The notes: generated by a model from the letters alone, not told the origin. A stretch of DNA of 64,000 bases from a virus (IMGVR_UViG_3300045988_122718:64001-128000); one strand, 5' to 3'. Positions 19,820 through 50,731 are shown, counted from the first letter of the stretch. Numbers and translations: made by a program.

Positions 19820-22800
19820 TTAACCACAGTGACTATACCCACATGATTTACAAATGTCACATCCCCCTTCGTGCTCAAGTAGCTCCCCACACTCTGGGCA
19901 TCTTCCGTTCTTTTCAGTAACAATCTTAATATCATTAGGAACTCTAGATTCATCATATTCTTCCTCGGAATCTGTGTCATAAGTATCTCCGATTTCATCT
20001 TGCATTTCCTTCCACATGTCTACAAGCGCATTTCCAATAGCCATAGGACAACAAGAACCCTTTGATGTGTCATGCTTTGTGGCTGTTCTTGCTGCGTAGC
20101 TTGGGCATACACCGGTTGAATCTAGCTGGTCTTTAATTGTAGCAATATCAACACCTGCTCTACATAGAAGAGATACTGTACGACTTAAACCAGTCATAAA
20201 ATTAGCACAACCACCAGTGCTACCTTTGTTGAAATATACTTCCTGCAAGTCACCATTGTATGGATCAAAGAAAGCCAATACATGAAGACTTCCACATCCA
20301 GTAGTCAGTTTGCGCTTTTTACCAATAAGGTCATCGGAACAGTTCATGATTGCACCACGTGGAATAGATTCTTCCGTCTGAATTTCTTCTTTGTTTTTAT
20401 CTTCTACAATCAATACACCTTCACGCTTACAGCCAGAACGATAAATTGTAATACCCTTTAGGCCATTCTTCCAAGCTGACATATAGATATTTTTAACATC
20501 ATCAATCGTAGCCTCATTTGGTAGATTTACTGTAGAGCTAATGCTCGCGTCAATCCCCTTTTGCCAAGCAGCCTGCATAGCTACACGTTTGTTATAGTCA
20601 ATTTCGGAAGAATCAACAAACCAATCAGGGAATTTATCGTTGACAGTAAGTCCGTGTTCGTCTGCATACTTTTGATAAATAGGGGTAAGCACATCATAGT
20701 ACTGAGTTGTTTCGTGCAGAGATTCTGTCTTACGCTTGTAGCTCTTTGCGAAAATAGGCTCAATACCACCACTGATTCCAAGCATTGTTGAGATGGTTCC
20801 GGTTGGAGCAATGGTTAGAAGTTGACTATTGCGTAGACCATAATTATCAACCATGTTTCTTGTTATGGTGTCTGCATTTGCTCTAAAGAATGGGGTATCA
20901 ATTGTTGCATTTGTATATTTAGGATATATACCCTTTTCACAAGCTAAGTGAGAAGAAACATAAATTGCGTGGTTAGCCATTGCCATAGAAATATCACGGC
21001 AGTGTTCGATTGCCTCGTCACTATCATAACGTAAATGCATCTTGATGAGCATATCAGCAACGCCGCATACCCCTAGTCCAACTTGACGCCAATCTCTTAC
21101 GCTATCTCTTTGCTCTTGTAGAGGATGAAGAGGAAGACCTTCGTCAAGAACCTCGTTTAAGTATCTAATACCAATATCTACTGTATCATAGAAATCATCA
21201 TACATAAAATTGCCATAATCATCTACAAAGGCAGACAGATTAATGGAACCGAGTAGGCATGACCCACCAGCGGGAAGAGGTTCTTCTGCACAAGGATTGG
21301 TTCCAGCATATTCGAAGTCTGGATTATTACTTAACAGATTATATTCTTCAATATTATCCCAGAATAGAATTCCTGGCTCTGCCCAGTTCCAATTGTTCTC
21401 ACATAGCTTATCAAAAATATCTCTTGCTTTTGCAGTCTTTGTGATTGTTTCACCAGTTTCTGGACGAGTAAAAGACATTACCCAATCGGTATCATCTTCG
21501 ACCGCTTGCATAAAATCATCTGTTACACGAACAGATATATTAGCTTTAGTAACGCTATTTTCTTTGGTCTTGATGTCAATAAAGTCTAGTAGGTCTGGAT
21601 GATGACAATCAAGACTAATCATTAAAGCGCCTCTGCGGCCATTCTGACCGATTTCCTCGGTTGTCTGACTATAGCCCTGCATGAAACTTACGGCGCCACT
21701 AGTCTTTTCTGCTTGATTATGGACCTTTGCACCAGCAGGGGCAAGTTTAGAAATGTCAATTCCGCAGCCTCCACCATACGAATATGTTCTTGCTAGCTTC
21801 TTACGACTTTCAAAAATAGACTCAATGTTGTCTTCTGGAGGTGCAATTACATAGCAATTATGAACAATAACACCATTTACATTATATGTATGCGTGTCTT
21901 CTACAGATAAGTTGTATACTTTGCAGTGGCAATCTTCAGAGATGCTAATTGAACTTAGAGCCGCATACTCAAAATCGCCACGTACATCAAGGCTATTTCT
22001 TCCGTCACTATATTGTTTAGACAATAGTGGATTTAAAAATTTATTAGAAATAGATACCCCAACACGAAATTCATATGTATCGGCTTGACGCTCTACGGAA
22101 TGAATAGGAGATGCGTTAATGCCATTCATCCACATTGTATAATGTAGCCAATCAATTAATTTACGATTTTTTAGCACAATACGAAATGCACCGTGTGTGT
22201 CTAACGTACCATCTGCGTCACATAGTCCGACCATCATTGGAACACAACCAAGATATTCATCAGGAACAAATTTATCGTTGCATTTTTCTCCAAAATGGTT
22301 AATAAACCAAGATGCTACAATTTCACTTTCAAACCTTAAAGCAATAACATTCTGATTGGTTTCACGATAAGATGCATGAATACCAAAAACACTTTCACCA
22401 ATAGATTTACAACGTTCAAACGCATCACGCTCTGTGGTTGCGTTGAATACGATTTGTAGAATAGATGGATTTTTATAACCACGGCGTGCCGTTATACTAC
22501 CATCACCCAACCAACGACCAATAAAATATGCAAAATCATCATCAAATACCCACTCAGCACGTACAGAGTTACCTCTATGCTGATAGGTTGTAGTTCCACG
22601 GTCATTTACAAGCGTATAAATTTGAGCCATTCCGTCTTTTACTTCAACCTTGCTATTGTCTCTAGCCTTAAATCCATCAAGAGCGGATACAATCTTTGGC
22701 GTAAGCTTAATCATATGGCGTTGTGCCATCTTGATTTTATCTTGTGCTTTAATTTGCTCAGAACAAGCAAGTATACGGTCTGCTCGTTTCCAACCGTGGT

Positions 22801-23236
22801 TTGTCAAAAATTTATGATTTGGAGTACATTTGATTGGTTCCATAAAATTTATACTTTTAAGACAATAAATATCTCCAGTATATTCACGACACATAATGTC
22901 ATTTACACGATGAAACTGTTCATCATGAGACAGTACCATGTCTCCAATAGCAATATCTTCAATATTTTTAAATCCGTCAATCGTAAGCACTTTGGAACCA
23001 GCCATAAAACAATTTGAGTAAGTGACTCTAGTGTCCTTTACACCTCGGTTGCTAAGAATACGACCACCAGGAACAAACTTCTTATTGATAATTGCTTTCT
23101 TTGCTCTCTTATTACCGCCACTTACTCTGTCTAGCCATTCATCAAATGACTCTTCGCCCTTACGATATTTTCTCATCCAAATATCAATTCCAAGTTTATT
23201 GTCTTTCCCTAACCACTGTTCTACTGTCATAGGCAT
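19820..23236 (-). CDS. nrdJ: class II (adenosylcobalamin-dependent) ribonucleotide reductase, intein-containing precursor
   Basis: The extein reads ...TYSN|CYVIAPPEDNIES.... Large RNR core motifs are present (NPCAEEPLP..GSCLLGS). The C-terminal Cys-rich tail is CPECGELLEHEGGCDICKSCG. Length is 753 aa without the intein. Confidence 0.85.
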   Translation of the reverse strand: MPMTVEQWLGKDNKLGIDIWMRKYRKGEESFDEWLDRVSGGNKRAKKAIINKKFVPGGRILSNRGVKDTRVTYSNCFMAGSKVLTIDGFKNIEDIAIGDMVLSHDEQFHRVNDIMCREYTGDIYCLKSINFMEPIKCTPNHKFLTNHGWKRADRILACSEQIKAQDKIKMAQRHMIKLTPKIVSALDGFKARDNSKVEVKDGMAQIYTLVNDRGTTTYQHRGNSVRAEWVFDDDFAYFIGRWLGDGSITARRGYKNPSILQIVFNATTERDAFERCKSIGESVFGIHASYRETNQNVIALRFESEIVASWFINHFGEKCNDKFVPDEYLGCVPMMVGLCDADGTLDTHGAFRIVLKNRKLIDWLHYTMWMNGINASPIHSVERQADTYEFRVGVSISNKFLNPLLSKQYSDGRNSLDVRGDFEYAALSSISISEDCHCKVYNLSVEDTHTYNVNGVIVHNCYVIAPPEDNIESIFESRKKLARTYSYGGGCGIDISKLAPAGAKVHNQAEKTSGAVSFMQGYSQTTEEIGQNGRRGALMISLDCHHPDLLDFIDIKTKENSVTKANISVRVTDDFMQAVEDDTDWVMSFTRPETGETITKTAKARDIFDKLCENNWNWAEPGILFWDNIEEYNLLSNNPDFEYAGTNPCAEEPLPAGGSCLLGSINLSAFVDDYGNFMYDDFYDTVDIGIRYLNEVLDEGLPLHPLQEQRDSVRDWRQVGLGVCGVADMLIKMHLRYDSDEAIEHCRDISMAMANHAIYVSSHLACEKGIYPKYTNATIDTPFFRANADTITRNMVDNYGLRNSQLLTIAPTGTISTMLGISGGIEPIFAKSYKRKTESLHETTQYYDVLTPIYQKYADEHGLTVNDKFPDWFVDSSEIDYNKRVAMQAAWQKGIDASISSTVNLPNEATIDDVKNIYMSAWKNGLKGITIYRSGCKREGVLIVEDKNKEEIQTEESIPRGAIMNCSDDLIGKKRKLTTGCGSLHVLAFFDPYNGDLQEVYFNKGSTGGCANFMTGLSRTVSLLCRAGVDIATIKDQLDSTGVCPSYAARTATKHDTSKGSCCPMAIGNALVDMWKEMQDEIGDTYDTDSEEEYDESRVPNDIKIVTEKNGRCPECGELLEHEGGCDICKSCGYSHCG
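21857..23011 (-). mobile_element. intein (385 aa) with LAGLIDADG homing endonuclease domain
   Basis: It begins CFMAGSKVLTIDG (Cys1), ends ...GVIVHN, and is followed by extein Cys+1. The two LAGLIDADG motifs are FAYFIGRWLGDGS and MMVGLCDADGT. Confidence 0.9.
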
Positions 23237-24166: not shown

Positions 24167-24738
24167 TTCGACATCAGCTCCTCATCCTGCTTATAAAACT
24201 CCTCTACTGCCGCAACAATTTCATCCCAATTTGTGCAACGCTTAATACTATAAGCTTCATCATGCACATTCTTGTTCCAAGGTTTTTCTAAGACTACCCT
24301 ATTGCATCGAATATTTCCAATAAGATTGTCTAGATTATCATCAATCATTACATCTACGGCTAGAAGGCTCTTGTCTCTGATGCAGATAATATGAGATTCA
24401 TCAATAAACGGGAAATAGCTTTGCAGCCACTCAACCTTCCAAGGAAAGTTCTCCCAATGTGTTGCAGTTGTAATATACACATCATAGCCGTTATCAATCA
24501 GCTTTTTTGTTCCCCATTGAGAATGATATACAGGAGTAAGAGAACGCCAAACGTCCTCTCTTCTCCATAGAGCAGTGTACTTTTCTGCATCTTCAAATGG
24601 TAAGCATTTATAGATATCATACGAAGTAAATGTGTCTTCTGTAATGTCCGTACCATTCTCTTCATTGAATACTTTACATACAGCTTCGTTAAGATTATTC
24701 AGAACATCATCACAATCCAAAGCAATTCTATATCTCAT
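24163..24738 (-). CDS. 5'(3')-deoxyribonucleotidase (HAD/NT5C family)
   Basis: N-terminal IALDCDDVLNNL (DxDxV motif). The size and C-terminal pattern are typical of NT5C-type phage nucleotidases. Confidence 0.7.
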   Translation of the reverse strand: MRYRIALDCDDVLNNLNEAVCKVFNEENGTDITEDTFTSYDIYKCLPFEDAEKYTALWRREDVWRSLTPVYHSQWGTKKLIDNGYDVYITTATHWENFPWKVEWLQSYFPFIDESHIICIRDKSLLAVDVMIDDNLDNLIGNIRCNRVVLEKPWNKNVHDEAYSIKRCTNWDEIVAAVEEFYKQDEELMSN

Positions 24739-25856
24739 ACATTTCCTCCATTAATTTTGTACTGTACAATATAATCAGACCAATTAGTACCATTATCGTT
24801 GAATAGCAGAGAATAGAAGATGGCCACCAAACAGGATGTTACGATAGAATTACCAGCCTGTTTATAAAGGGCAGAGTCACTTACGTACTTAGATGCACGA
24901 TTGCAGTCTTCATCGGAGAAGCTCATCAGCCTCCAGCATTCTTTTGGTGTTAGTTTTCTAATCCTCCATTTAATATTATCCACTACAAGCGGCTGTCTAT
25001 TGCCACCTTGTGCAGTCATAATAGTAGGAGAAACAGAATCCTGATCCCACACATTTCCAGCATATCCAGTACCAAACTGTTCACCGTAGATATTACCAAT
25101 TCTAACTGGGTTGATATCTTCTGACTCAATAACTCTCTTATCACCACAAGCATCAATAGTACGAAGTGTACCAACGACATCATCCTTGAAGAATCTTAGT
25201 CCTTCATCGCAACGCTGCTCACAAACGACGGGTTCCATTACATAATTATCCTTGGCAACAGTAGTAATAGTATTGGTAGTTCCGTTCATATTGGCTTCAA
25301 GTCTCTGCTCCGTAGGAGAACCCGTAGTTCTGTCTGATGAATTCTCTGGATTTCGACCACGAGAAGCTACAATGAAATATTCATCAACAAGAATCTTATG
25401 TGAAGTATATTCACCAGATGTTGAACCATGAGAATTTGACATAACAGTATGTGCAATACATTCTGCACTATATACTCTGCCACTCTGGTCAAAACTAGAA
25501 TCTAGCTGATCGACTTTGATAATGCTAGGCTCAATAACACCAGTCATAGACTGATTACCAAAGCCCTTATAATCTCTAGCCATAAGAGTATGTGCAACAT
25601 TTGTTAGACCATCGAATGTCGTTTCCTGATTTTTTAGATTAATACCACTAGCTTCGTTTTGTCTTGCAATAAAGTTTGCAAGAATGCTTTCTACTTTATC
25701 ACCAGAGAGGTAGTATTTCTCATCTACGGTCTTCTCTAGAATATCCTTTAGACGAGTTGTTAGAGGAATCTGCTCTGGCCAAGTAAAATCTTTCCATAGC
25801 TTGATATTTGGGTTTTTCTCAATTTCTTTCATTATTTCTTGAACTTTATTATTCAT
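24735..25856 (-). CDS. DNA (cytosine-5) methyltransferase, C-terminal fragment (TRD + motifs IX-X)
   Basis: FTWPEQIPLTTRLKDILE..., RKLTPKECWRLMSF and LYKQAGNSIV (motif X). The ATG at 25856 has an AGGTGGG RBS and overlaps the HNH stop. Confidence 0.8.
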   Translation of the reverse strand: MNNKVQEIMKEIEKNPNIKLWKDFTWPEQIPLTTRLKDILEKTVDEKYYLSGDKVESILANFIARQNEASGINLKNQETTFDGLTNVAHTLMARDYKGFGNQSMTGVIEPSIIKVDQLDSSFDQSGRVYSAECIAHTVMSNSHGSTSGEYTSHKILVDEYFIVASRGRNPENSSDRTTGSPTEQRLEANMNGTTNTITTVAKDNYVMEPVVCEQRCDEGLRFFKDDVVGTLRTIDACGDKRVIESEDINPVRIGNIYGEQFGTGYAGNVWDQDSVSPTIMTAQGGNRQPLVVDNIKWRIRKLTPKECWRLMSFSDEDCNRASKYVSDSALYKQAGNSIVTSCLVAIFYSLLFNDNGTNWSDYIVQYKINGGNV

Positions 25857-26379
25857 ATTCCCACCTATATCCTTTATATAATTTATGCAATCTACATGCT
25901 CTTGCAATTCCACTATTGTCATATCCTAAAATACGTCCTGCTTCACGAGTTGATGCGAATTTTGCTATAAAGTTCATATTTGAATCATATTGCAATATTG
26001 GTTTACTCCAATAATTTTTTGCCATTGTTCCACATTGTTCTTTGTTCTTTTTAGAGGCTCTACCTTTGGCATTATTTTCTTCCCATGTTAACAATTGCAT
26101 ATTATCAAAAGTATAATCCCTATAATCATCAATACGATCTATAGATGGACATAAATTTTTATTATAATTACTGTCTTTATAATTTTGTAATAATGATAAA
26201 ATCTTTTCTTTATAATTTGACAAAATCCAATCATTAAATTGATTTCTTGTAAATGATAATTCAGATGAAAATTTATTCTTTTCATCTCTTTTCATTCTTC
26301 CGTATTGCTTTGTTACCCAGTAATGCAAATCACCTTTATGTGTCTGGTCATACCATTTTTTATACTCATTTTTCGTCAT
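25849..26379 (-). CDS. HNH homing endonuclease (with NUMOD/IENR-like DNA-binding C-terminus)
   Basis: PSIDRIDDYRDYTFDNMQLLTWEENNAKG (HNH core) and a C-terminal ...TREAGRILG...GYRWEY. It is inserted between the two halves of the C5-MTase. Confidence 0.8.
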   Translation of the reverse strand: MTKNEYKKWYDQTHKGDLHYWVTKQYGRMKRDEKNKFSSELSFTRNQFNDWILSNYKEKILSLLQNYKDSNYNKNLCPSIDRIDDYRDYTFDNMQLLTWEENNAKGRASKKNKEQCGTMAKNYWSKPILQYDSNMNFIAKFASTREAGRILGYDNSGIARACRLHKLYKGYRWEYE

Positions 26380-27061
26380 TTATATCAATCCTTTTGCTAA
26401 TACAAAAAATACGAAGCCTGTTTTGTGGAACACCGTAATTCTTGCTATTCAATAAGTCAAATGTACTCTCGTACCCAATCTCAGTAAGTTTTTCCAGATA
26501 CTTAATAAAATTATGTTTGTGCTTATCACTCAATACGGCTGCAACATTTTCCCAAATTACATATTTAGGCTTTGATGTTCCAATTAGACGCAGAGATTCC
26601 CACATAAGAGAACTAGTTGTACCACTACCTTCGTCTCCACCAGCACCGAGTCCGGCCTGTGAAAAACTTTGACAAGGGCTACTATGAAAAACGATGTCTA
26701 CGTAAGGAAGACTTTCACAAAGACTTACATCACCAAGATTTTTTGCCAACTTATCCGCTAGATAATATTGCTTGACTTTATTTTCATTAGTTCTCATTGT
26801 GATGGTGTGCTTCGATTTGGCGAAGTCAAAGCCCACATTTTTCTTCTGTAGTTCAGATACCATGGTTTCTTTAGATGGAAATGTATAATTGTTAAATTCC
26901 TTCTCAAAGTCATACCTCATTGCTGCGTAACTTAAAATAGCATCTTTTTCAACATCCATCGTTGCAACAACTTCACAATTGATAGGCAACTGTCTAAGTG
27001 CCCTTTCTTGGGCACCAATACCCGAAAAAATCTCTATCAGCTTAATTTTATTATTGCCCAT
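26366..27061 (-). CDS. DNA (cytosine-5) methyltransferase, N-terminal fragment (motifs I-VIII)
   Basis: IEIFSGIGA (motif I), SSPCQSFSQAG (IV), VIWENV (VI), QNRLRIF (VIII). It ends 10 codons after motif VIII. Confidence 0.85.
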   Translation of the reverse strand: MGNNKIKLIEIFSGIGAQERALRQLPINCEVVATMDVEKDAILSYAAMRYDFEKEFNNYTFPSKETMVSELQKKNVGFDFAKSKHTITMRTNENKVKQYYLADKLAKNLGDVSLCESLPYVDIVFHSSPCQSFSQAGLGAGGDEGSGTTSSLMWESLRLIGTSKPKYVIWENVAAVLSDKHKHNFIKYLEKLTEIGYESTFDLLNSKNYGVPQNRLRIFCISKRIDINDEK

Positions 27062-44199: not shown

Positions 44200-44202
44200 T
44201 TA

Positions 44203-44278
44203 TGGAGCACGTGACGAGGCTCGAACTCGCAACAGCCAGATTGGAAATCTGGAACTCTACCAATTGAGCTACACGTGC
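44203..44278 (-). tRNA. tRNA-Gly(UCC)
   Basis: Cloverleaf GCACGTG..CCAGA-TTTCCAA-TCTGG..GCGAG-TTCGAGC-CTCGT-CACGTGC-T-CCA. The CCA is encoded. Confidence 0.9.
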
Positions 44279-44284
44279 ATATAA

Positions 44285-44356
44285 TATTCCACACAGGAGT
44301 CGAACCTGTCTCTCTACGTTCGCGGCGTAGTGTTCTATCCGATGAACTAGTGGAAT
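44285..44356 (-). tRNA. tRNA-Arg(GCG)-like with C33
   Basis: ATTCCAC..CTACG-CCGCGAA-CGTAG..ACAGG-TTCGACT-CCTGT-GTGGAAT. The anticodon loop has C at position 33. No CCA is encoded. Confidence 0.6.
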
Positions 44357-44364
44357 TTGACTTA

Positions 44365-45120
44365 CTATATATCAAATTCTTTGTGTCTACCACAATCTCT
44401 TGATAACCACGTTATATTTCTTTTACCATTACCTTTGTTTGCTCCTCTATATGTAGGAGTTAATGAATGACAATTAGGGCATAACAATGTTAAATTTTCT
44501 TCTTTATTATTTGTTGCATCTCCATCAATATGTTCTATTTCAAGTGGCAAAGTTCCAGTATATGGATTAATTTCACTCCACCCACATTTTGCACATTTAT
44601 TTTCGTATTTATCAAAAATATATTTTTTAATAGACGAAGATAGGTCTATCCATTTATCACCTGTTAATCCATCCCATTCTCCATCTTTCCATTGTTTTAT
44701 TTTTTGTTTATATCTATATTCATTAAAACATTTTGCAGAACAATATTTATTTTTCTTAGGTATTTCTTTATTACAATTAATACAATAATGATGTCCTACT
44801 TTCTTTTTTCTATGTTGGTTGCTATATGTCACAGAGCATGAACGGGAACAAAACTCAATTCTTTTAAAATCACTATTTTTTTGATTATATTTTTGCGAGA
44901 TTTCTTTCCCACAATTTTTACAAAACTTAATATCTAATTCTTCTTTAATGTGCGGACATTTTTCAATCATACAATATTTTATTGTAGATAATTGCTTTTC
45001 AAATGTTTTATGACACCCATCACATTCTACAATATATATAGTATGATTGTCTTTTGTTCTTTTGTCAGATATCCCTATTATTGTATAACATCCATATTTT
45101 TCTCCTATGTGTTTATCCAT
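44365..45120 (-). CDS. HNH endonuclease (multi-Zn-ribbon N-terminus)
   Basis: The C-terminus LEIEHIDGDATNNKEENLTLLCPNCHS is an HNH core. It is embedded in the tRNA array. Confidence 0.8.
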   Translation of the reverse strand: MDKHIGEKYGCYTIIGISDKRTKDNHTIYIVECDGCHKTFEKQLSTIKYCMIEKCPHIKEELDIKFCKNCGKEISQKYNQKNSDFKRIEFCSRSCSVTYSNQHRKKKVGHHYCINCNKEIPKKNKYCSAKCFNEYRYKQKIKQWKDGEWDGLTGDKWIDLSSSIKKYIFDKYENKCAKCGWSEINPYTGTLPLEIEHIDGDATNNKEENLTLLCPNCHSLTPTYRGANKGNGKRNITWLSRDCGRHKEFDI

Positions 45121-45152
45121 TATGTATCACCACGATGTCTATTATTTTAAGA

Positions 45153-45284
45153 TGGTGGGCCTGGAGGAACTCGAATCCTCGACCAATAGCTTAATGGTGG
45201 GAATGGCAGGTGCTGCCCCTACTTGCAAAAGCTTTTCTGAATACACCCCCAAGGCTACTGCTCTACCTACTGAGCTACAGACCC
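45153..45284 (-). tRNA. tRNA-Lys(UUU) interrupted by a 56-nt tRNA-like minihelix
   Basis: GGGTCTG-TA-GCTC..GAGC-A-GTAGC-CTT[56 nt]TTAA-GCTAT-TGGTC-GAGGA-TTCGAGT-TCCTC-CAGGCCC-A-CCA. The length is 76 nt after removal, and the body resembles bacterial tRNA-Lys. Confidence 0.8.
45195..45250 (-). ncRNA. nested tRNA-like minihelix (intron candidate) in tRNA-Lys
   Basis: GGGGGTG-(21 nt)-GTAGG-GGCAGCA-CCTGC-CATTCCC-A-CCA: a 7-bp acceptor-like helix (2 G-U), a 5-bp stem, a 7-nt GGCAGNA loop, a discriminator and CCA. Confidence 0.7.
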
Positions 45285-45287
45285 ATA

Positions 45288-45363
45288 TGGTCTGAGTGGT
45301 GAGTCCCGCCCTCACGGCCTCGTGGTCCCAGGCCACGCGCTCTGCTAACTGAGCTACACCCAG
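45288..45363 (-). tRNA. free-standing tRNA-like gene: Pro(UGG)-type anticodon loop with C33 and non-canonical T-loop GGCGGGA
   Basis: CTGGGTG-TA-GCTC-AGTTAGCA-GAGC-G-CGTGG-CCTGGGA-CCACG-AGGCC-GTGAG-GGCGGGA-CTCAC-CACTCAG-A-CCA. The D-loop lacks GG. Confidence 0.6.
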
Positions 45364-45368
45364 AAATA

Positions 45369-45445
45369 TGGCACCCCGTGTTGGACTCAAACCAACGACA
45401 CATGGCTTAGAAGGCCATTGCTCTGTTCAACTGAGCTAACGGGGC
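45369..45445 (-). tRNA. tRNA-Arg(UCU)
   Basis: GCCCCGT..ATGGC-CTTCTAA-GCCAT..GTTGG-TTTGAGT-CCAAC-ACGGGGT-G-CCA. Confidence 0.85.
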
Positions 45446-45450
45446 ATATA

Positions 45451-45539
45451 TGGCGCGGCGCTGAGGTGTCGATCCCCATTCCTTTCACAGAACCACTAGT
45501 TTTCAAGACTAGGTTGCAAGCCGTTGCAATTAACGCCGC
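45451..45539 (-). tRNA. tRNA-Ser(UGA), class II
   Basis: GCGGCGT..CTAGT-CTTGAAA-ACTAG, a long variable arm, TGGGG-ATCGACA-CCTCA-GCGCCGC-G-CCA. Confidence 0.8.
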
Positions 45540-45649
45540 ATATTTTTGTAATCTCAAACTCCTCCACACAGATTACTGGGCACCCCTTACCTCGAATGCT
45601 AGTTAGTAGCAACAAACGTTTGTGCCGTTTCCACAAATAAAGATACACT

Positions 45650-45844
45650 TTACTGCGTATTAACCTCTGTATATTCAGTACTAGATAAGGTAATCATTCT
45701 TTCGCATCCGTCCTGTGGACAAAAAATATTTGCAACCCCAAGATTATTTATTCCGTCAGACGGATTAAATGCAAATTCACAACCACAATAAGGGCAGATT
45801 GCCTTATAGGTCTTAACTTTGCCTCCCTTGATAATATACTTCAT
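45650..45844 (-). CDS. small Zn-ribbon protein
   Basis: CPYCGC...CPQDGC. ORF with RBS inside the tRNA island. Confidence 0.5.
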   Translation of the reverse strand: MKYIIKGGKVKTYKAICPYCGCEFAFNPSDGINNLGVANIFCPQDGCERMITLSSTEYTEVNTQ

Positions 45845-45855
45845 AGTAACACCTC

Positions 45856-45975
45856 TTAATTAAACTTGCTTAACTGCCGCTTAACCTTACGGATAAGACC
45901 TTCGTTCATAGTCTCGCCTCGTGCCAGAAGCTTTGCTAAACGATTTTCATAATGTTCCTTAGTGCGAAAATTCAT
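45856..45975 (-). CDS. small basic ORF (39 aa)
   Basis: MNFRTKEHYENRLAKLLARGE... with an AGGAGG RBS. Below the ORF-track cutoff. Confidence 0.35.
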   Translation of the reverse strand: MNFRTKEHYENRLAKLLARGETMNEGLIRKVKRQLSKFN

Positions 45976-46001
45976 AATATGTACCTCCTAAAATTTTTGT
46001 A

Positions 46002-46124
46002 TGGCAGGGGTAGCAGGGTTCGAACCTACGATGCGGGAGTCTGGTCAAGGTAGTTGGTACTGCCCCAACTAAATTCACTTGAATACCTTGAAAGTCCCGT
46101 GCCTTACCACTTGGCTATACCCCT
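46002..46124 (-). tRNA. tRNA-Gln(UUG) interrupted by a 49-nt tRNA-like minihelix
   Basis: AGGGGTA-TA-GCC-AAGTGGTAA-GGC-A-CGGGA-CTTT[49 nt]GAC-TCCCG-CATC-GTAGG-TTCGAAC-CCTGC-TACCCCT-G-CCA. The body resembles bacterial tRNA-Gln (GCCAAG.GGUAAGGCA, weak 1-72 pair, G73). Confidence 0.8.
46042..46090 (-). ncRNA. nested tRNA-like minihelix (intron candidate) in tRNA-Gln
   Basis: CAAGGTA-TTCAAGTGAATTTA-GTTGG-GGCAGTA-CCAAC-TACCTTG-A-CCA. Confidence 0.7.
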
Positions 46125-46127
46125 ATA

Positions 46128-46202
46128 TGGTGGATCTGACGTGACTCGAACACGCAACCTCTTCCTTGCAAGGGAAGCTTTCTCCCATTGAAATACAGAC
46201 CC
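46128..46202 (-). tRNA. tRNA-Ala(UGC)
   Basis: GGGTCTG..CTTCC-CTTGCAA-GGAAG..GCGTG-TTCGAGT-CACGT-CAGATCC-A-CCA. G3:U70 is present. Confidence 0.9.
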
Positions 46203-46363
46203 TTATTTTGTGAGGTAACTACACTATGTATACCTAATGTAGCTACTGGCTTTCAAACTCCCCACCTCAAACCATTTTTATCTGTCTCTCCTCTTGGCCA
46301 ACCAGATTTGAGTGATTTGAACGGCGCGCCGTCCTCACATTGATAAAATAGTAAAATCAACAA
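46203..46363 (-). ncRNA. unassigned structured RNA candidate (~135 nt closed by TGTGAGG/CCTCACA)
   Basis: In - sense there is a 7-bp closing helix and the palindrome ACGGCGCGCCGT. Nested helices are TTCAAAT/GTTTGAA and CTCAAAT/GTTTGAG. A 9-bp hairpin is GTAGCTACA/TGTAGTTAC. There is no ORF. It does not fit a tRNA. Confidence 0.35.
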
Positions 46364-46454
46364 TGGCGCGATAGGAAGGCTTCGAACCTTCGCACGGCTT
46401 TCACCGCCTAGCAGATTAGCAATCTACCCTCTTCAACCACTTGAGTACTACCGC
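46364..46454 (-). tRNA. tRNA-Ser(GCU), class II
   Basis: GCGGTAG..GTAGA-TTGCTAA-TCTGC, a long variable arm, GAAGG-TTCGAAG-CCTTC-CTATCGC-G-CCA. Confidence 0.85.
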
Positions 46455-46457
46455 ATA

Positions 46458-46661
46458 TTAATCTAATGTTTTTCCAGTTGCTAATTCAAAAATTAAATTA
46501 TCAACACAAGGAATGTGCATTACCTCTCTCTCATATTGAGTACGATGTTCAATATCATTAATATAGATAGGACAATCTTTACATTCTACATTTTCACAAA
46601 AACGAACAGCTTTTTCTACTACTTTAGAATTCGCAAATTTTATATATTCTTCCCAACGCAT
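46458..46661 (-). CDS. hypothetical Cys-containing protein
   Basis: ORF with a GGAGG RBS (ATG at 46661) directly downstream of a pseudoknot motif. Confidence 0.5.
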   Translation of the reverse strand: MRWEEYIKFANSKVVEKAVRFCENVECKDCPIYINDIEHRTQYEREVMHIPCVDNLIFELATGKTLD

Positions 46662-46678
46662 AAAATCCTCCATAAAAC

Positions 46679-46709
46679 GAGCAGTTTATACAGTGATACT
46701 CAGCACTAT
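46679..46709 (-). ncRNA. H-type pseudoknot motif, copy 1
   Basis: In - sense: ATAGTG-CT-GAGTA-T-CACTGT-ATAAAC-TGCTC. Both stems pair, with G-U pairs valid only in - sense. Confidence 0.55.
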
Positions 46710-46762
46710 CCGTCTGGGTTCCAATATTAGAACCGTCCACAATTGAGTTTTGACCACCATAG

Positions 46763-46837
46763 TGGAGCTGATGGAGAATTTCGAAATCTCGACCTAGTGA
46801 TTACAAATCACTCGCTCTGCCTCTGAGCTACACCAGC
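46763..46837 (-). tRNA. tRNA-Thr(UGU)
   Basis: GCTGGTG..AGTGA-TTTGTAA-TCACT..T-arm GAGAT-TTCGAAA-TTCTC (one mismatch)-CATCAGC-T-CCA. Confidence 0.8.
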
Positions 46838-46891
46838 AGATCTCCTCGTCTTTCCGAGGTGTCAATCACACTTTTACATTAATAATCTTAA

Positions 46892-46920
46892 ATTATTCTT
46901 TAATAGGAAGATGACGTCAA
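46892..46920 (-). promoter_or_regulatory. candidate sigma-A promoter inside the tRNA island
   Basis: TTGACG (46915-46920), 17 nt spacer, AATAAT (46892-46897). It is enclosed by the inverted repeat AATCACAC/GTGTGATT. Confidence 0.4.
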
Positions 46921-46943
46921 TCTGTGTGATTACCTTTTATGTG

Positions 46944-47012
46944 AGGTCTTAATTGGAATCGAACCAACACCTGCCCTACCATAGGGCCGATCTACCATTG
47001 AACTATAAGACC
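46944..47012 (-). tRNA. aberrant tRNA-like gene (anticodon arm GCCCT-ATGGT-AGGGC, 5-nt loop); identity undetermined
   Basis: The acceptor (GGTCTTA/TAAGACC), D-arm and T-arm (GTTGG-TTCGATT-CCAAT) are canonical. The anticodon loop is 2 nt short. Confidence 0.45.
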
Positions 47013-47015
47013 TAT

Positions 47016-47092
47016 GGTGACGCTACCGGGGATCGAACCCGGACACTCCACGGTGAAAGCGTGGTAACTCTACCAATTCGTCCATAGCGCCA
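47016..47092 (-). tRNA. tRNA-Glu(UUC)
   Basis: GGCGCTA..CCACG-CTTTCAC-CGTGG..CCGGG-TTCGATC-CCCGG-TAGCGTC-A-CCA. Confidence 0.85.
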
Positions 47093-47099
47093 TATCTTT

Positions 47100-47130
47100 G
47101 GACAGTTTATACAGTGATGTCCAGCACTGT
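47100..47130 (-). ncRNA. H-type pseudoknot motif, copy 2
   Basis: In - sense: ACAGTG-CT-GGACA-T-CACTGT-ATAAAC-TGTCC. It ends 8 nt before the tRNA-Glu 5' end. Confidence 0.6.
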
Positions 47131-47142
47131 CACTTTTGGGAG

Positions 47143-47227
47143 TGGTAGCGGTGGTGGGCTACGATCCCACACGTCATAAGACATTGGTTTTTGAGACCAA
47201 CCTGTCTACCTGTTCCAGCACACCGCC
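47143..47227 (-). tRNA. tRNA-Leu(CAA), class II
   Basis: GGCGGTG..TTGGT-CTCAAAA-ACCAA, a long variable arm, GTGGG-ATCGTAG-CCCAC-CACCGCT-A-CCA. Confidence 0.8.
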
Positions 47228-47434
47228 ATATTAAGCACAACCTACACTGAGCTAGCCTCGCTCACACTTGCTTTCCCGAACACGTCCCACCCTCGGTTAT
47301 GCTTTGATATTGTTTATCCTATTTTCACAATAACATATGCCTCGTTCTCTTCTTGTTACTGTGGGTCAGTAACTTAGTAGCTTTTCTCTTGTGGATAGCA
47401 CTTATCAATACACCGAGAACCCCAATAGGCGGCA
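47228..47434 (-). ncRNA. unassigned structured non-coding block (207 nt)
   Basis: No ORF. Long-range pairs are GCCT...AGGC and GTTCTC...GAGAAC. Hairpins are GTTACTG-ACCCA-CAGTAAC and TGAGC-GAGGCTA-GCTCA. A D-arm-like TAGCTCAGTGTAGG lies at the 3' end. Confidence 0.3.
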
Positions 47435-47511
47435 TGGTTGCGTGAGGTTAGATTTGAACTAACGATCTTCAGCTTATGGGGCTGACGAGATGACCACTTC
47501 TCTACTCCGCA
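47435..47511 (-). tRNA. tRNA-Met/Ile2(CAU) with C33 and a bulged acceptor stem
   Basis: TGCGGAG-TA-GAGA-AGTGGTCA-TCTC-G-TCAGC-CCCATAA-GCTGA-AGATC-GTTAG-TTCAAAT-CTAAC-CTC(A)CGCA-A-CCA. Confidence 0.6.
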
Positions 47512-47515
47512 GTAT

Positions 47516-47546
47516 CTAGCAGACTATAATGCCGTCTGCTATGGCA
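47516..47546 (-). ncRNA. spacer pseudoknot between tRNA-Ile and tRNA-Met
   Basis: In - sense: ATGCC-A-TAGCAGAC-GGCAT-TATA-GTCTGCTA. It has two interleaved perfect stems. Confidence 0.45.
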
Positions 47547-47566
47547 TCAGAAAGAGGTGTTGCATG

Positions 47567-47719
47567 TGGTCCCCTACCGGTGGATTGAACACCGAACCTC
47601 CCGATTATTGGCCTCCTCAGTAAGTCCTGCCCTTACATCTCTAAATCCTGCTGTTTAGTAGTTCTACTATTAAACTATGAGGAGAAGTCGGGTGCTCTAG
47701 CCAGTTGAGCTAGCAGGGG
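47567..47719 (-). tRNA. tRNA-Ile(UAU) interrupted by a 76-nt tRNA-like element
   Basis: CCCCTGC-TA-GCTC..GAGC-A-CCCGA-CTT[76 nt]ATAA-TCGGG-AGGTT-CGGTG-TTCAATC-CACCG-GTAGGGG-A-CCA. The length is 77 nt after removal. Confidence 0.75.
47609..47684 (-). ncRNA. nested full-length tRNA-like element (intron candidate) in tRNA-Ile
   Basis: CTCCTCA-TA-GTT-TAATAGTAG-AAC-TA-CTAAA-CAGCAGGA-TTTAG-AGAT-GTAAG-GGCAGGA-CTTAC-TGAGGAG-G-CCA. It is cloverleaf-sized, with an 8-nt anticodon-like loop and a GGCAGGA T-loop. Confidence 0.65.
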
Positions 47720-48133
47720 ATATATAATCCGGCTTTTACGGTACGACCAGTAAGATGGACGCGCTTGAATTTCACAATTGCCTAGCGTTTCAGGTACTTT
47801 TTAGGAGTTTGGATGTAATACCTTATCCATTCACGCATAGTCCATTAGTACCATGGGCTATAGGACTCACTCCAAGTGGCCGGATTCAACTCCCCTGTAA
47901 ATTCAGGTCTTCCTATCCCCTACCCTTGAAGGATGTTTACCATACTTTTATACCGCTGGCACACATCAGGCGGCTGTGGTAATGATAGCAAGCGGAGCCG
48001 TGCATGACTCCATTTCATAGTGTTTCGTCAATTGCCTTCAGCTCATCCAAGTAATATCAACAGTTAGCAAATTCTGTCGAGAGCTTATTCTCATCGGTAA
48101 TCACTTATGAAATTTGCACTACTCACTATCATC
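47720..48133 (-). ncRNA. large unassigned structured non-coding block (414 nt)
   Basis: It is visibly GC-richer than the flanks, has no credible ORF or RBS, and lies between tRNA-Asn and tRNA-Ile. Its 3' ~55 nt are repeated at 48291-48345. Confidence 0.35.
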
Positions 48134-48210
48134 TGGCGGGAGTAGAAGGACTTGAACCTACGACATCTTGCTTAACAGGCAAGCGCTCTAACCAACTGAG
48201 CTATACTCCC
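48134..48210 (-). tRNA. tRNA-Asn(GUU)
   Basis: GGGAGTA..CTTGC-CTGTTAA-GCAAG..GTAGG-TTCAAGT-CCTTC-TACTCCC-G-CCA. Confidence 0.85.
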
Positions 48211-48213
48211 AAA

Positions 48214-48290
48214 TGGCGACCCATACCAGACTTGAACTGGTGTCCTCTTGCGTGACAGGCAAGCGTGATACTCTTCTTCACCAATGGGCC
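48214..48290 (-). tRNA. tRNA-Asp(GUC)
   Basis: GGCCCAT..CTTGC-CTGTCAC-GCAAG..ACCAG-TTCAAGT-CTGGT-ATGGGTC-G-CCA. Confidence 0.85.
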
Positions 48291-48408
48291 ATATTATGCC
48301 GGCTTTTACGGCATATTTAGCTAGAATATGCTTGAATTCCACAAAAGATGTTTTCTCTATATTAGACACAGTTATTCCCCGGTAGAAAATCTAACACCCG
48401 CTGCGTCT

Positions 48409-48493
48409 TGGTGGGCCAGGTTGGTGTCAATCCAACTACTCTCGAAGGAAACGGATTTACAATCCGCCGCGTTTGCCGATTCGCTACTGACCC
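48409..48493 (-). tRNA. tRNA-Tyr(GUA), class II
   Basis: GGGTCAG..GCGGA-TTGTAAA-TCCGT, a long variable arm, GTTGG-ATTGACA-CCAAC-CTGGCCC-A-CCA. Confidence 0.85.
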
Positions 48494-48550
48494 ATATAAC
48501 TATACTTTAGTATTTTGTTTTAATGTTTGAGAATTACTTGCCAAGGTCAA

Positions 48551-48683
48551 TGGTGCGGGTAGCGAGACTCGAACTCGCACGGATATTTCACCGAGGGATT
48601 TTTGGTGGATATTGTAGGTACTGCCCCTACCAAAGCACTTGCTATACCCAAGTCCCTTATGTCTGCCATTCCATCATACCCGC
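48551..48683 (-). tRNA. tRNA-Leu(UAA), class II, interrupted by a 47-nt tRNA-like minihelix
   Basis: GCGGGTA..A-AGGGA-CTT[47 nt]AAAA-TCCCT-CGGTGAAATATCCGT-GCGAG-TTCGAGT-CTCGC-TACCCGC-A-CCA. The length is 86 nt after removal. AAGGGA.UUAAAAUCCCUCGG matches bacterial tRNA-Leu(UAA). Confidence 0.8.
48603..48649 (-). ncRNA. nested tRNA-like minihelix (intron candidate) in tRNA-Leu
   Basis: GGGTATA-GCAAGTGCTTTG-GTAGG-GGCAGTA-CCTAC-AATATCC-A-CCA. Confidence 0.7.
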
Positions 48684-48691
48684 ATATCACA

Positions 48692-48721
48692 GGGCAGCTT
48701 TAAGGTGATGCCCAGCACCAT
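48692..48721 (-). ncRNA. H-type pseudoknot motif, copy 3
   Basis: In - sense: ATGGTG-CT-GGGCA-T-CACCTT-AAAGC-TGCCC. It ends 8 nt before the tRNA-Leu(UAA) 5' end and lies just after the stop of the TROVE-like gene. Confidence 0.55.
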
Positions 48722-48731
48722 ACTTAACTCC

Positions 48732-50285
48732 TTAAGAGTTCTTCAATGCGGCTTCCACCGCATCATATCTATCACTCATAAGCGTCTCAACTAGACACTC
48801 ATAAGGATCGGGTTTACCACTCATAACCATCTTGCAAACATTAGTGGAGAATCCGCTAACAAGAGCAACACCAAGGTCATTCTCCTTTACATGAATAGTT
48901 CCAGTGCGAGAATTTACATTCCAGAAGACTAGTCTAGGCATCTTATACCCAGCATACTCGAAACGCTTTTTGATCACATTAAAAAGTCTTGCATTAGGTC
49001 TATTAATACCATATCTAGCGGAACCATCACATGTTGCACAAGAGTCAAACTCCATGTCTGAAATAATGAGTACATTCTTAGGCATATCCTCTTGCTTCAT
49101 ACGACCATTTACCGCAGTAGTAAGAATCAAATCAAACACCTTTTCAATGTTTGTATTCGAACACTCGTCATGACCATACGCAACACATAACTTATCTCTC
49201 AGAGAATCGCACTGACTAAAATCAACCAACTGAGGTCTGCTAGAGAAAGTAATATATTTATCTTTAAAGTCTCCAGAAGAATGTTCTGCAAAGTAAATTG
49301 CAAGTGCATTTGCAACTTCAAGTGCAGTAACACGGCTACTTTCACCAACGTTACAACACATAGAAGCAGAACCATCTGCAACTACAATGGTGTTTCCACA
49401 CTCATTTACTGTATCAGGCAAAGCCCTCCAAAGAGATTCAAGAGTTGCATCATACTTGTTGACATAATTATTCCATCCAATTGTGTTAGAATACTTATGT
49501 ACAATGTCGTGAGGGAACAAAGTTCTAGCATTAATCTTAGTTTCACCATTTTCAAGCTTACTTAGATACTCTCTGCGACGCTCCTTATCATTACGAAGGA
49601 AAGCTCCGTTATAAATGAGATTTGCACGAGAAGGAACCGTTTCGTACTTAATGTCTCCCCATTTCTTTGCAGACATCTTACTTTCTACAATGTCAATGTA
49701 AGAACGCAGAGAAGAAAGAATCTTACGATACTTACGCTCTGTCATTCCAAGATTCTTGCAAATGTATCTTGCATCCATCTTAGTTTTTGCAGAAGAAGCA
49801 TTCACAGAAGGAAGCCACTTTGCAAGAAGAGATACGGGCTTATTATCAGCCATATTTGCAATGTCATCGGTGAGCTGCTTTTTGATGATGTCAAGAATAA
49901 CACCATCTACATCTGTTCCAAACAGACACCATAGGTCATCATAACGACCATACTCACTCACTAGAGGAGCAAGATGCTTAACAATGTCAACGTCATCCTT
50001 TACCATATTCTTAAGAATCACTCTGAACAAATGTCTCTCACCAAGACCACCATGAACATCTCTGGCGAAGAACAGCCAACGTAGAGCCATCATTTTATCT
50101 TCAAAATAAGCCTTAGTAAACTTATTATAGATATTCTCCTCACTCATACCACGCATAGAAGAAACTGCAAAGTTTAGGTCAACCAGTTCCTTACCAGAGG
50201 TACGATACCCAAGAGCGCCATTCTCAGTTACTGAATAGTTGAAATCCTCGTTCAGAGTATTCTTTACTGCATTCATAAAAGACAT
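48732..50285 (-). CDS. TROVE/DUF2828-like + vWA domain protein (Ro60-related candidate)
   Basis: The N-terminus VTENGALGYRTSGKELVDLNF...RWLFFARDVHGGLGER resembles DUF2828/TROVE. The C-terminal half has the vWA MIDAS motif VVADGSASM (D-x-S-x-S). A GGAGG RBS precedes the ATG at 50285. The size is Ro60-like. Confidence 0.6.
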   Translation of the reverse strand: MSFMNAVKNTLNEDFNYSVTENGALGYRTSGKELVDLNFAVSSMRGMSEENIYNKFTKAYFEDKMMALRWLFFARDVHGGLGERHLFRVILKNMVKDDVDIVKHLAPLVSEYGRYDDLWCLFGTDVDGVILDIIKKQLTDDIANMADNKPVSLLAKWLPSVNASSAKTKMDARYICKNLGMTERKYRKILSSLRSYIDIVESKMSAKKWGDIKYETVPSRANLIYNGAFLRNDKERRREYLSKLENGETKINARTLFPHDIVHKYSNTIGWNNYVNKYDATLESLWRALPDTVNECGNTIVVADGSASMCCNVGESSRVTALEVANALAIYFAEHSSGDFKDKYITFSSRPQLVDFSQCDSLRDKLCVAYGHDECSNTNIEKVFDLILTTAVNGRMKQEDMPKNVLIISDMEFDSCATCDGSARYGINRPNARLFNVIKKRFEYAGYKMPRLVFWNVNSRTGTIHVKENDLGVALVSGFSTNVCKMVMSGKPDPYECLVETLMSDRYDAVEAALKNS

Positions 50286-50530
50286 TTTCTTTCCTCCATT
50301 TTTTTGATTTATTTCTAAATCCCAAGACACATTATTATGTACAATCTCCACATTAAAAATTTGCTGTTAGTGTCTTTGGAGTTTATTCAACGAGACGCCA
50401 AAATAAAACCATTAGTAAAAATATCATTTTCATCTTTTTAAATTACTGTAAGCGTCTCTATGTAAGGCAAGGCACCATCAATACAAATCCATATCATATT
50501 ATGTAAAGTTGCTGTTAGTGCCTTTTTAAA

Positions 50531-50648
50531 GTCTCCTGACAGGACTTGAACCTGCGACCTCTGGTTTAACAGACCAATTAGAAACTTGCTATTTAAGGCT
50601 TTTACAAGTCTCGTTATTAAGCGCTCTATCCGACTGAGCTACAGGAGA
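50531..50648 (-). tRNA. tRNA-Asn(GUU) copy with a 44-nt insertion between the D-arm and anticodon stem
   Basis: TCTCCTG-TA-GCTC-AGTCGGATA-GAGC-G-[44 nt]-TTGGT-CTGTTAA-ACCAG-AGGTC-GCAGG-TTCAAGT-CCTGT-CAGGAGA-C. No CCA is encoded. Confidence 0.55.
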
Positions 50649-50686: not shown

Positions 50687-50731
50687 TTAATTTTGTACTG
50701 TGATTATACCACAGATTACTTATTTTGTCAA
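50687..50731 (-). promoter_or_regulatory. sigma-A promoter + leader box driving the tRNA-Asn copy
   Basis: TTGACA (50726-50731), 17 nt spacer, TGGTATAAT (-10 at 50703-50708), then ACAGTACAAAATTAA (50687-50701). Confidence 0.65.

Follow-up and report, generated by a model that had tools for sequence, protein, structure and literature searches.

How can a tRNA gene that is split within its own anticodon give rise to a functional tRNA? The question is raised by a stretch of viral DNA of 64,000 nt (IMGVR_UViG_3300045988_122718:64001-128000, here called the window), in which four tRNA genes on the minus strand, lying between positions 45,153 and 48,683, each carry an insert in the anticodon loop. 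An earlier note, made from the sequence alone, had read these inserts as tRNA-like minihelices whose exact removal restores canonical tRNAs, and had proposed that they are cut out at the ends at which tRNAs are normally matured and that the exons are joined by a phage RNA ligase. We confirm that four tRNA genes have a nested insert in the anticodon at the coordinates below. The structural interpretation is right, with corrections, and the enzymology is a good hypothesis. We give roughly even chances to the view that each insert is a nested, reduced tRNA that interrupts the anticodon loop of a working phage tRNA and would be excised by maturation enzymes before ligation of the exons. The four genes and their inserts are as follows.

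45153-45284, minus strand: tRNA-Lys(UUU), split at 34/35, 5' exon 45251-45284, 3' exon 45153-45194, Rfam tRNA 56.8 bits.
45195-45250, minus strand: Lys insert, 56 nt, GGGGGUG ... GUAGG-GGCAGCA-CCUGC-CAUUCCC-A-CCA.
46002-46124, minus strand: tRNA-Gln(UUG), split at 35/36, 5' exon 46091-46124, 3' exon 46002-46041.
46042-46090, minus strand: Gln insert, 49 nt, CAAGGUA ... GUUGG-GGCAGUA-CCAAC-UACCUUG-A-CCA.
47567-47719, minus strand: tRNA-Ile(UAU), split at 34/35, 5' exon 47685-47719, 3' exon 47567-47608.
47609-47684, minus strand: Ile insert, 76 nt, a full-size tRNA-like element with acceptor stem CUCCUCA/UGAGGAG, D-arm GUUU-AAUAGUA-GAAC, a degenerate anticodon arm (8-nt loop), T-arm GUAAG-GGCAGGA-CUUAC, then G and CCA.
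48551-48683, minus strand: class II tRNA-Leu(UAA), split at 34/35, 5' exon 48650-48683, 3' exon 48551-48602.
48603-48649, minus strand: Leu insert, 47 nt, GGGUAUA-GCAAGUGC-UUUG-GUAGG-GGCAGUA-CCUAC-AAUAUCC-A-CCA.

The minimum-energy fold of each insert consists of a 7-bp outer helix, an abutting 5-bp stem that closes the 7-nt loop GGCAGNA, and an unpaired N-CCA; the outer stem of the Leu insert has six pairs and an A.A mismatch. All four fit the acceptor/T-arm minihelix of a tRNA, with 7-bp and 5-bp stems, G53-C61, a discriminator and a 3' CCA (Leu with 6/7 pairs). The Lys, Gln and Leu inserts hold at most a small internal hairpin and are without an anticodon arm, and the Ile insert keeps a D-arm. 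The CAAGT hairpins of the window's inserts resemble the D-loop of the Ile insert, and each looks like a vestigial D-arm. As a separate observation, the Leu insert (48603-48649) contains G3.U70 and A73, the alanine identity set for minihelices, which is not kept in its closest variants, in loci L035 and L091.

Standard tools do not recognise these genes for what they are. By default ARAGORN called 13 tRNAs and missed all four interrupted genes; in intron mode it returned introns of exactly 56, 49, 76 and 47 nt and labelled the genes Thr, Glu, Arg and Pro, reporting wrong anticodons because it places the intron at the canonical site. Once each insert was excised, from the first stem base through the CCA, the same program called Lys(ttt), Gln(ttg), Ile(tat) and Leu(taa). 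The identities deduced in the earlier note are upheld, and those of Gln and Leu are proven by intron-less orthologues. Against the Rfam tRNA model three of the interrupted genes score at the gathering threshold and Leu at E 8e-6. A search of Rfam with the window and seven related loci, at the gathering score and at E<=5, returned tRNA only and no intron, ribozyme or Y-RNA family, so that Rfam assigns the inserts to no intron or RNA family other than tRNA.

The limits of two inserts can be read directly from a close relative, L068, which has the same gene order as the window and whose SHMT protein is 99% identical to that of the window. In L068 the Lys and Ile inserts are present and the Gln and Leu genes are uninterrupted. 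Alignment of the window with L068 leaves a clean 49-nt gap at CTTT|GAC in Gln and a clean 47-nt gap at CTT|AAAA in Leu, with no target-site duplication at either insert site. At the level of the genes, relatives prove the insert boundaries; the insert anatomy and exact boundaries of the earlier note are thus borne out both by the folds and by these presence/absence alignments. The spliced Gln junction predicted for the window-type gene, GGCACGGGACUUUGACUCCCGCA, is distinguishable from the intron-less L068 allele.

The same architecture is found well beyond this pair of phages. IMG/VR was scanned with the T-arm/CCA pattern GTWRGGGCAGNACYWRC-N8-CCA, which is biased toward GGCAGNA loops, and yielded at least 119 loci; a second scan of these loci disregarded the T-loop sequence. 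The 120 viral loci covered contain at least 54 nested cases, corresponding to at least 34 distinct minihelices from at least 9 metagenome samples. Of the pattern matches, 43 fall within a host tRNA. In each of these only one 5' boundary gives back a loop of 7 nt, and it is the place where the helix begins. The bases at that boundary pair with the seven before N-CCA at 7/7 positions in 34 loci and at 5-6/7 in 9, against a background of 7/7 pairing at 35/4128 positions, nearly all 35 of which are the true sites. With covarying sequences in at least 38 independent viral loci and at least 9 samples, recurrence refutes the idea that the inserts are artefacts of assembly or chimera formation, to which we attach practically no probability.

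Family figures, here and below, are for the matches listed. Leu-UAA is the host of 11 of the 34 elements, Ile-UAU of 9, Lys-UUU of 6 and Gln-UUG of 3, with one each in Glu-UUC, Pro-UGG, Thr-UGU, Sup-CUA and Asn-GUU. The earlier statement that all four hosts are U34 tRNAs holds for the window, and the family is mostly, not solely, U34. Elements are 45-77 nt long and their junctions fall at 34/35 in 23, at 35/36 in 8 and at 36/37 in 3. The base preceding the element, N(-1), is U in 31/34, in agreement with what had been noticed in the window; the first element base is G in 21 and C in 11, and the discriminator is A in 23 and G in 9 (a purine in 32/34).

Pairing within the elements is maintained by covariation. 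Across the 34 distinct elements, 11 of the 12 pairs show changes on both sides, and the covariation score is 1.01 compared with 0.25 for shuffles and 0.10-0.20 for slid registers. Overall pairing is 98.5%, a figure that is partly a matter of construction because pairing was itself a search criterion. G.U pairs are frequent and non-pairs rare, as are the A.C mirror images of G.U, which indicates that pairing has been selected in the RNA of this strand.

What, then, are the inserts? Their internal part spans a range from elements of 45-56 nt with a tiny hairpin, through cloverleaves with a variant T-loop, to a canonical tRNA. With their T-loop exchanged for a canonical one, homologues are recognised by ARAGORN as tRNAs ('Arg gcg', 'cta' and 4-base anticodons), and at positions 2702-2855 of L091 tRNA-Ile(UAU) encloses a fully canonical tRNA-Sup(CUA), the junction being at 36/37. 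Judged by their folds and homologues, the inserts are reduced nested tRNAs, in which the acceptor/T-arm/N-CCA module is always kept and the D and anticodon arms are dispensable. The word 'minihelix' in the earlier note was accurate for that module; as a free-standing invention it has to be given up, in view of the D-arm of the Ile insert and the cloverleaves in relatives. Amber-suppressor tRNAs occur in both nesting roles, as the insert in L091 and as the host in L074, a 240-kb phage contig in which a Sup(CUA) tRNA (1950-2100) holds a 75-nt nested element.

The loop GGCAGNA had been described as something other than a canonical TTCRANY T-loop. This is correct, yet it is an alternative T-loop of real tRNAs. 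Most of the pattern matches are not nested; they are cloverleaf tRNAs that stand alone, measure 74-76 nt and have a normal anticodon loop. ARAGORN misses them, and they cover a dozen or more anticodons (Gln, Met, Phe, Pro, Trp, Val, Ile, His and others). Members of this stand-alone class were seen in loci L002-L116, and also in L126, L129, L136 and others. One lies in the window itself, 3 nt from the Lys gene:

45288-45363, minus strand: stand-alone tRNA-Pro(UGG), T-loop GGCGGGA, C33, Rfam tRNA 43.8 bits, cloverleaf fold.

It too is missed by ARAGORN, and its T-loop is of the same class as those of the inserts. A tRNA-Pro with a GGCAGNA loop is also present in L002, L019 and L045, and the loop recurs in a cellular tRNA, the tRNA-His of Pelagibacter. 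The D-loops of GGCAGNA tRNAs are AAYAGYA-like and without G18G19 (GG in 4/39, compared with 359/467 ordinary tRNAs from the same loci), a pairing of T-loop and GG-less D-loop that points to a co-adapted alternative elbow. GGCAGNA is hence a genuine T-loop variant. Nested elements with TTCGAAT, TTCAAGT, TGCAATT or GTCATCA loops, some of them of the TTCRANY type, also exist, and the loop sequence is therefore no criterion for membership of the family. The T-arm pattern was likewise run against 185,579 reference genomes, where the 120 matches listed comprise cellular tRNAs and chance matches in Streptococcus coding sequence, and no nested element.

Seven related phages keep the order of the tRNA array and differ in which genes are occupied:

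Leu: 47 nt inserted; empty in L068 and L034; variants in L033, L035, L091, L093 and L119.
Gln: 49 nt inserted at 35/36 (window, L035); an unrelated 48-nt element at 34/35 (L091); an unrelated 71-nt element (L034); empty (L068).
Lys: 56 nt inserted (window, L068); empty (the syntenic Lys gene of L035); an unrelated 75-nt element at 35/36 (L119); the window's element, in the same or a variant form, also in L084.
Ile: 76 or 73 nt inserted; a canonical nested tRNA at 36/37 (L091); empty (L119).

The presence of different elements, or of none, at the same tRNA in relatives indicates that gain and loss recur. Homologues of the Ile element reside in exons that are only 71-84% identical to one another, and this element has evidently been inherited for a long time. 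Such polymorphism is also what might be expected if the inserts were selfish elements at the level of DNA, for instance mini transposons or homing cassettes with 7-bp terminal inverted repeats and an incidental likeness to tRNA, and selfish DNA abounds in this phage, which has an intein, a split methylase gene with a homing endonuclease in it and, next to the Lys gene, an HNH gene. We consider this explanation very improbable, however. Neither alignment shows a target-site duplication, the asymmetry between G.U and A.C bespeaks selection on the RNA strand, and the T-arm, the discriminator and the CCA are conserved. HNH homologues show no association with nested loci and are not supported as homing partners. 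Moreover, mobility would leave the need for excision at the level of RNA.

A different possibility is that these genes are never spliced, the exons being only leader and trailer or tRNA halves and the product being the nested element, as a tRNA, a decoy or a ligand of a Ro-like protein. Some nested elements are complete tRNAs with plausible anticodons, as with Sup-CUA in L091, and the gene for a Ro-like DUF2828 protein adjoins the array. Selection on the exons argues otherwise. In close pairs of loci the exons are 100% identical and the inserts 88-97% identical, so the host tRNAs appear to be under the stronger constraint, and the anticodon stem of the Gln gene has undergone a compensatory change from C-G to A-U between the window and L068. 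Excision always restores a 7-nt loop with U33, three of the four inserts in the window have no anticodon arm, and the interrupted genes are the sole Lys, Gln and Ile genes and the sole Leu-UAA gene of the array. We judge the unspliced alternative improbable, although less so than a selfish DNA element.

If the inserts are introns, do they belong to a known kind? Group I introns were considered and rejected: the inserts, at 47-76 nt, have no catalytic core (P3-P9), they end in A (CCA or CAA) rather than G, and Rfam Intron_gpI does not match. Bacterial group I introns, such as those of cyanobacterial tRNA-Leu(UAA) and Azoarcus tRNA-Ile, share with the inserts a split inside the anticodon, a U before the 5' site and, for Leu, the 34/35 position; they differ in length (~200 nt or more), in having a conserved catalytic core and a G as their last base, and in self-splicing. 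These shared features, the U that ends the 5' exon and the use of a cyanobacterial group I site in tRNA-Leu(UAA), also speak for the broader notion of a small RNA that cleaves or splices itself, whether a mini ribozyme or a degenerate group I intron. At 45-77 nt the elements are too short for this, they end in A and not G, no Rfam intron or ribozyme matches at E<=5, and the conserved parts are just a plain helix and a T-loop around an internal sequence that is freely replaceable. The probability we assign to an autonomous ribozyme is accordingly very small.

Bulge-helix-bulge (BHB) introns of archaeal and eukaryal tRNAs, cut by EndA or TSEN and joined by RtcB or Trl1, resemble the inserts in being short, protein-dependent and located in the region of the anticodon loop, with joining by a ligase, and include a heal-and-seal variant that employs a kinase and a phosphoesterase. 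We reject this class as well, since both insert junctions flank the base of one 7-bp helix instead of forming two 3-nt bulges around a 4-bp helix. The junctions lie at the same helix end, in an asymmetric internal loop of 3-5 nt and 6-8 nt, and the intron is a tRNA-like module. Size, end nucleotides, geometry and the lack of an Rfam intron match thus agree with the earlier verdict that the inserts are of neither type.

The note's further remark, that no described intron class with such properties was known to its author, needs qualification. Among the tRNA genes of the Lak megaphages, 'enigmatic' introns have been reported, one of which 'may encode a tRNA', and no mechanism was proposed (Devoto et al. 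2019, PMC6784885). Like the inserts, these introns occupy the anticodon loops of phage tRNAs, are absent from some alleles and have no Rfam match (PMC6784885), and those of Lak Tyr, Phe, Gly and Thr genes (Table S6, PMC6784885) contain an acceptor-like stem and a T-arm with the loop TTCGAAT. In Lak introns, however, a 5' hairpin and an A/T-rich spacer of the AAATTAAA type precede the tRNA-like part, and the end is CA or TA, not N-CCA, which leaves the nested tRNA without contact to both exons. The window's inserts begin with the acceptor strand itself and end in CCA, and so are not of the Lak type as given in Table S6 (PMC6784885). Lak hosts also include G34 species, and the Lak paper gives no family definition and no link to a ligase (PMC6784885). 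Apart from that paper, a literature search of incomplete coverage yielded no account of this architecture or pathway, which does not prove that none exists. Against the systems characterised so far, the nested insert is a tRNA intron of a new kind.

How might such an intron be removed? The unit to be excised runs exactly from +1 of the acceptor stem to the A of N-CCA, and these ends stay fixed while the junction shifts between 34/35, 35/36 and 36/37. This suggests that the boundaries would be set by the tRNA-maturation signals of the element and not by the host tRNA. The acceptor/T-arm/CCA module is a known substrate of RNase P, and features of a bacterial RNase P substrate are present in the family, namely the acceptor/T-arm helix, the U(-1) and the purine discriminator; they are necessary and no proof of cleavage. 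The U(-1) is shared with the stand-alone tRNAs of the phage, which have ..AUAU| leaders and U(-1) in 14/18. RNase P would cut 5' of +1 and leave a 3'-OH on the 5' exon, and a 3'-end endonuclease of the RNase Z/BN type, or another enzyme, would cut right after the CCA and leave a 5'-phosphate on the 3' exon. The tRNA halves would be held together by pairing of the acceptor and anticodon stems while a phage ATP-dependent RNA ligase seals the nicked anticodon loop. The by-product would be a free, CCA-ended mini-tRNA, perhaps usable as a tRNA in some phages. Cleavage by RNase P and after the CCA, with ligation, is in our view the best-fitting route; the case is circumstantial and lies in the structure-defined boundaries and the co-occurrence of a ligase, which forms part of a cassette:

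37473-38636, minus strand: ATP-dependent RNA ligase of the Rnl5/NgrRnl type (Pfam PHA02142 OB 1.3e-25, RNA_ligase 1.2e-16).
36386-37195, minus strand: RlaP-like nucleotidyltransferase (RNA-repair-pathway Pol-beta family), between the kinase and the ligase.
35284-36195, minus strand: polynucleotide kinase with C-terminal HD-type motifs (Pfam AAA_33 9.8e-23; PHROG 'polynucleotide kinase').

The ligase, which the earlier note had identified correctly, matches NgrRnl (PDB 5cot) at E 1.5e-39; an OB domain lies at its N-terminus, and its motif I (KLDG) is intact. The protein is a candidate for the exon-sealing enzyme. The N-terminal half of the kinase matches the kinase domain of CthPnkp (E 3e-13), and its C-terminal half, in which HD...H...D residues can be read in translation, appears to be of the HD type, making the kinase-HD protein a candidate RNA end-healing enzyme. 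The gene between them matches Pfam RlaP at E 3.5e-4, under the curated cutoff of the family, and a PHROG nucleotidyltransferase at 4e-17, and it co-occurs with the ligase in relatives. RNA ligases are found in the flanks of 8/38 nested loci and 0/81 other loci, being Rnl5-like in L022, L034, L047, L062 and L098 and T4 Rnl1-like in L072, L101 and L119, and Pnk-type kinases follow the same pattern. The association of ligase and nested element is suggestive.

This cassette could equally serve a dedicated endoribonuclease that cuts both junctions to leave 2',3'-cyclic phosphate and 5'-OH ends, to be healed by the kinase-HD enzyme and sealed by the ligase. Healing and sealing of this kind is known from tRNA splicing in fungi and plants and from T4 Pnkp/Rnl1 repair. 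The company that the ligase keeps, with a Pnk-type kinase-HD and an RlaP nucleotidyltransferase, is in favour of such a pathway, as are kinases and metallophosphoesterases in the distant nested loci L101, L021 and L042, and the conserved GGCAGNA loop could serve as a protein recognition site. However, the 30 open reading frames of the window that were scanned with Pfam and PHROGs include no EndA-like or other candidate endonuclease, the canonical and other T-loops in the family argue against a loop-specific enzyme, and boundaries that coincide with mature tRNA ends are most simply explained by maturation enzymes. We rate a dedicated endonuclease as unlikely, while regarding it as the most serious of the competitors.

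Several considerations also weigh against excision by maturation enzymes. Cleavage sites, end chemistry and ligation are all deduced from sequence. The window encodes neither RNase P nor RNase Z, and for the 3' cut there is the difficulty that RNase Z of Firmicutes is reportedly inhibited by CCA, the relatives of this phage being of the Clostridia type. The Rnl5 ligases characterised so far act by preference on duplex nicks, and not on nicks within a loop. The kinase-HD end healer would be needless for 3'-OH and 5'-phosphate ends; it would fit the cyclic-phosphate/5'-OH route equally well, and it would fit the usual role of such cassettes against anticodon nucleases. Lineage, flanks of unequal length and that same anti-nuclease role all confound the association of ligases with nested elements, and many of the nested loci come from one sample. 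The element tail always has four bases, and the CCA end that had been claimed is found in all four inserts of the window, with CAA in its place in two lineages. Finally, the folding-energy z-scores of the inserts (0, -1.8, -1.7 and -0.4) are not significant, and the case stands on architecture and comparison, with energy dropped as evidence. The CAA tails read A-CAA and belong to L035 (Ile, 73-nt element) and to L025, L059 and L084 4392-4531 (Thr-UGU, 65-nt element, with G at -1).

Excision of a nested tRNA by maturation enzymes would have parallels in known processing signals. In MALAT1 mascRNA, mitochondrial tRNA punctuation and engineered tRNA-gRNA arrays, an embedded tRNA-like fold likewise draws the cuts of RNase P and RNase Z to its own exact ends within a longer transcript; there the flanks are released, whereas the flanks of a nested insert must be ligated for a functional tRNA. 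In T4, a phage kinase/phosphatase and a ligase (Pnkp and Rnl1) reseal the break made by PrrC beside U34 of tRNA-Lys. Similar cassettes accompany nested tRNAs, and the ligase of L072 belongs to the T4 Rnl1 family; the T4 system differs in that it mends the damage of a host defence nuclease, the break proposed here being programmed by gene structure. A stronger proposal is that these elements constitute a third kind of tRNA intron, a 'tRNA-in-tRNA' without catalytic core or BHB, dependent on RNase P, a post-CCA endonuclease and a phage ligase, and maybe spread at the level of RNA; we hold this tentatively, at somewhat less than even chances. Spread of this sort might come about if an anticodon nuclease opened an anticodon loop and a ligase joined a mature tRNA into the gap. 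Such an origin would account for boundaries at mature-tRNA ends and also for the preference for U34 tRNAs.

If excision and ligation are true, phages possess a protein-dependent form of tRNA splicing distinct from self-splicing group I introns and from BHB/endonuclease introns, in which the intron is a tRNA recognised by the cell's own tRNA-trimming enzymes. Phage RNA ligases and end healers would then have a housekeeping role beside the repair of defence damage, the 'enigmatic' tRNA introns of megaphages would be explained, and a natural, tiny and portable 'cut here' module would be at hand. Furthermore, tRNA finders miss or mislabel these genes, and phage tRNA inventories, codon-usage inferences and suppressor calls would need revision. 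The question is also raised of how a tRNA comes to be inserted, repeatedly and precisely, into the anticodon of another.

The phage itself is a large one. The window is AT-rich (G+C 36%) and carries genes for replication, nucleotide metabolism and an integrase. For its DnaE-type polymerase the identity is 55% with the enzyme of Clostridium botulinum phage c-st and 49% with those of Clostridioides phages, and by protein searches the phage falls near the Clostridium phages c-st and phiCD211. Megablast and blastn searches of the tRNA region and the Ile gene against 50,697 phage records gave no useful match. The minus-strand tRNA array spans ~44.2-48.7 kb (44200-48700), with an AUAU leader and an encoded CCA on most tRNA genes and spacers down to 2-6 nt. 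An HNH gene adjoins the Lys gene. Elsewhere in the window, the large subunit of ribonucleotide reductase (RNR; 19820-23236, minus strand) contains an intein with Hint and LAGLIDADG signatures at residues ~76-460. A C5 cytosine DNA methylase (24735-27061, minus strand) is split into an N-terminal reading frame at 26366-27061 and a C-terminal one at 24735-25922, between which lies a reading frame with a NUMOD1 homing-endonuclease-type domain (25849-26379); this is probably an intron or a homing-endonuclease insertion.

Directly upstream of the array is a gene for a DUF2828+DUF7788 protein (48732-50351, minus strand). Homologues of DUF2828 are labelled 'Ro-like RNA binding protein' or vWFA in records of cultured phages, of which 710 have the domain, including tRNA-rich phages and Lak. 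The gene adjoins nested tRNAs in three distant loci (L010, L048 and L072), and it also lies beside stand-alone tRNAs. No nested tRNA was present around the DUF2828 genes of two gut phage fragments and Enterococcus phage PEf771. As a specific partner of the nested elements, this widespread protein was accordingly rejected, and the literature on DUF2828 shed no light on its role here.

Other unusual tRNA-like genes were encountered in the same loci. At 50531-50648 (minus strand) the window has a 118-nt tRNA-like gene with a promoter-like TTGACA (50726-50731) and TATAAT (50703-50708) of the sigma-70-type consensus. It reads as a tRNA-Asn(GUU) with an insertion of ~44 nt between the D-arm and the anticodon arm; the insertion forms a 9-bp hairpin containing AUAGCAAGU and does not amount to a nested tRNA. 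Conservation of the gene extends to L033, L035, L068, L091, L093 and L119, and a second gene of this type, with the motif GAACAGCAA, stands alongside it in L033, L091 and L119. Three such genes are present in a gut phage fragment, MT837596.1 (L241 1194-1621).

A tRNA-like RNA of 113-114 nt occurs in L016 (3661-3773), L054, L079, L089 and L090; besides an acceptor stem it has a lengthened anticodon arm, a long extra arm and GGCAGGA as its T-loop. It lies near a DUF2828 gene in L016 and L089 and is reminiscent of bacterial Y RNAs; a comparison with Rfam gave no YrlA match. Lastly, tRNA-Ile(UAU) genes of 88-96 nt (L001 3174-3261, L033 3709-3804, L054 8236-8325 and others) have a long extra arm that holds a conserved CCAGAUUAG or CUAGAUAAGG.

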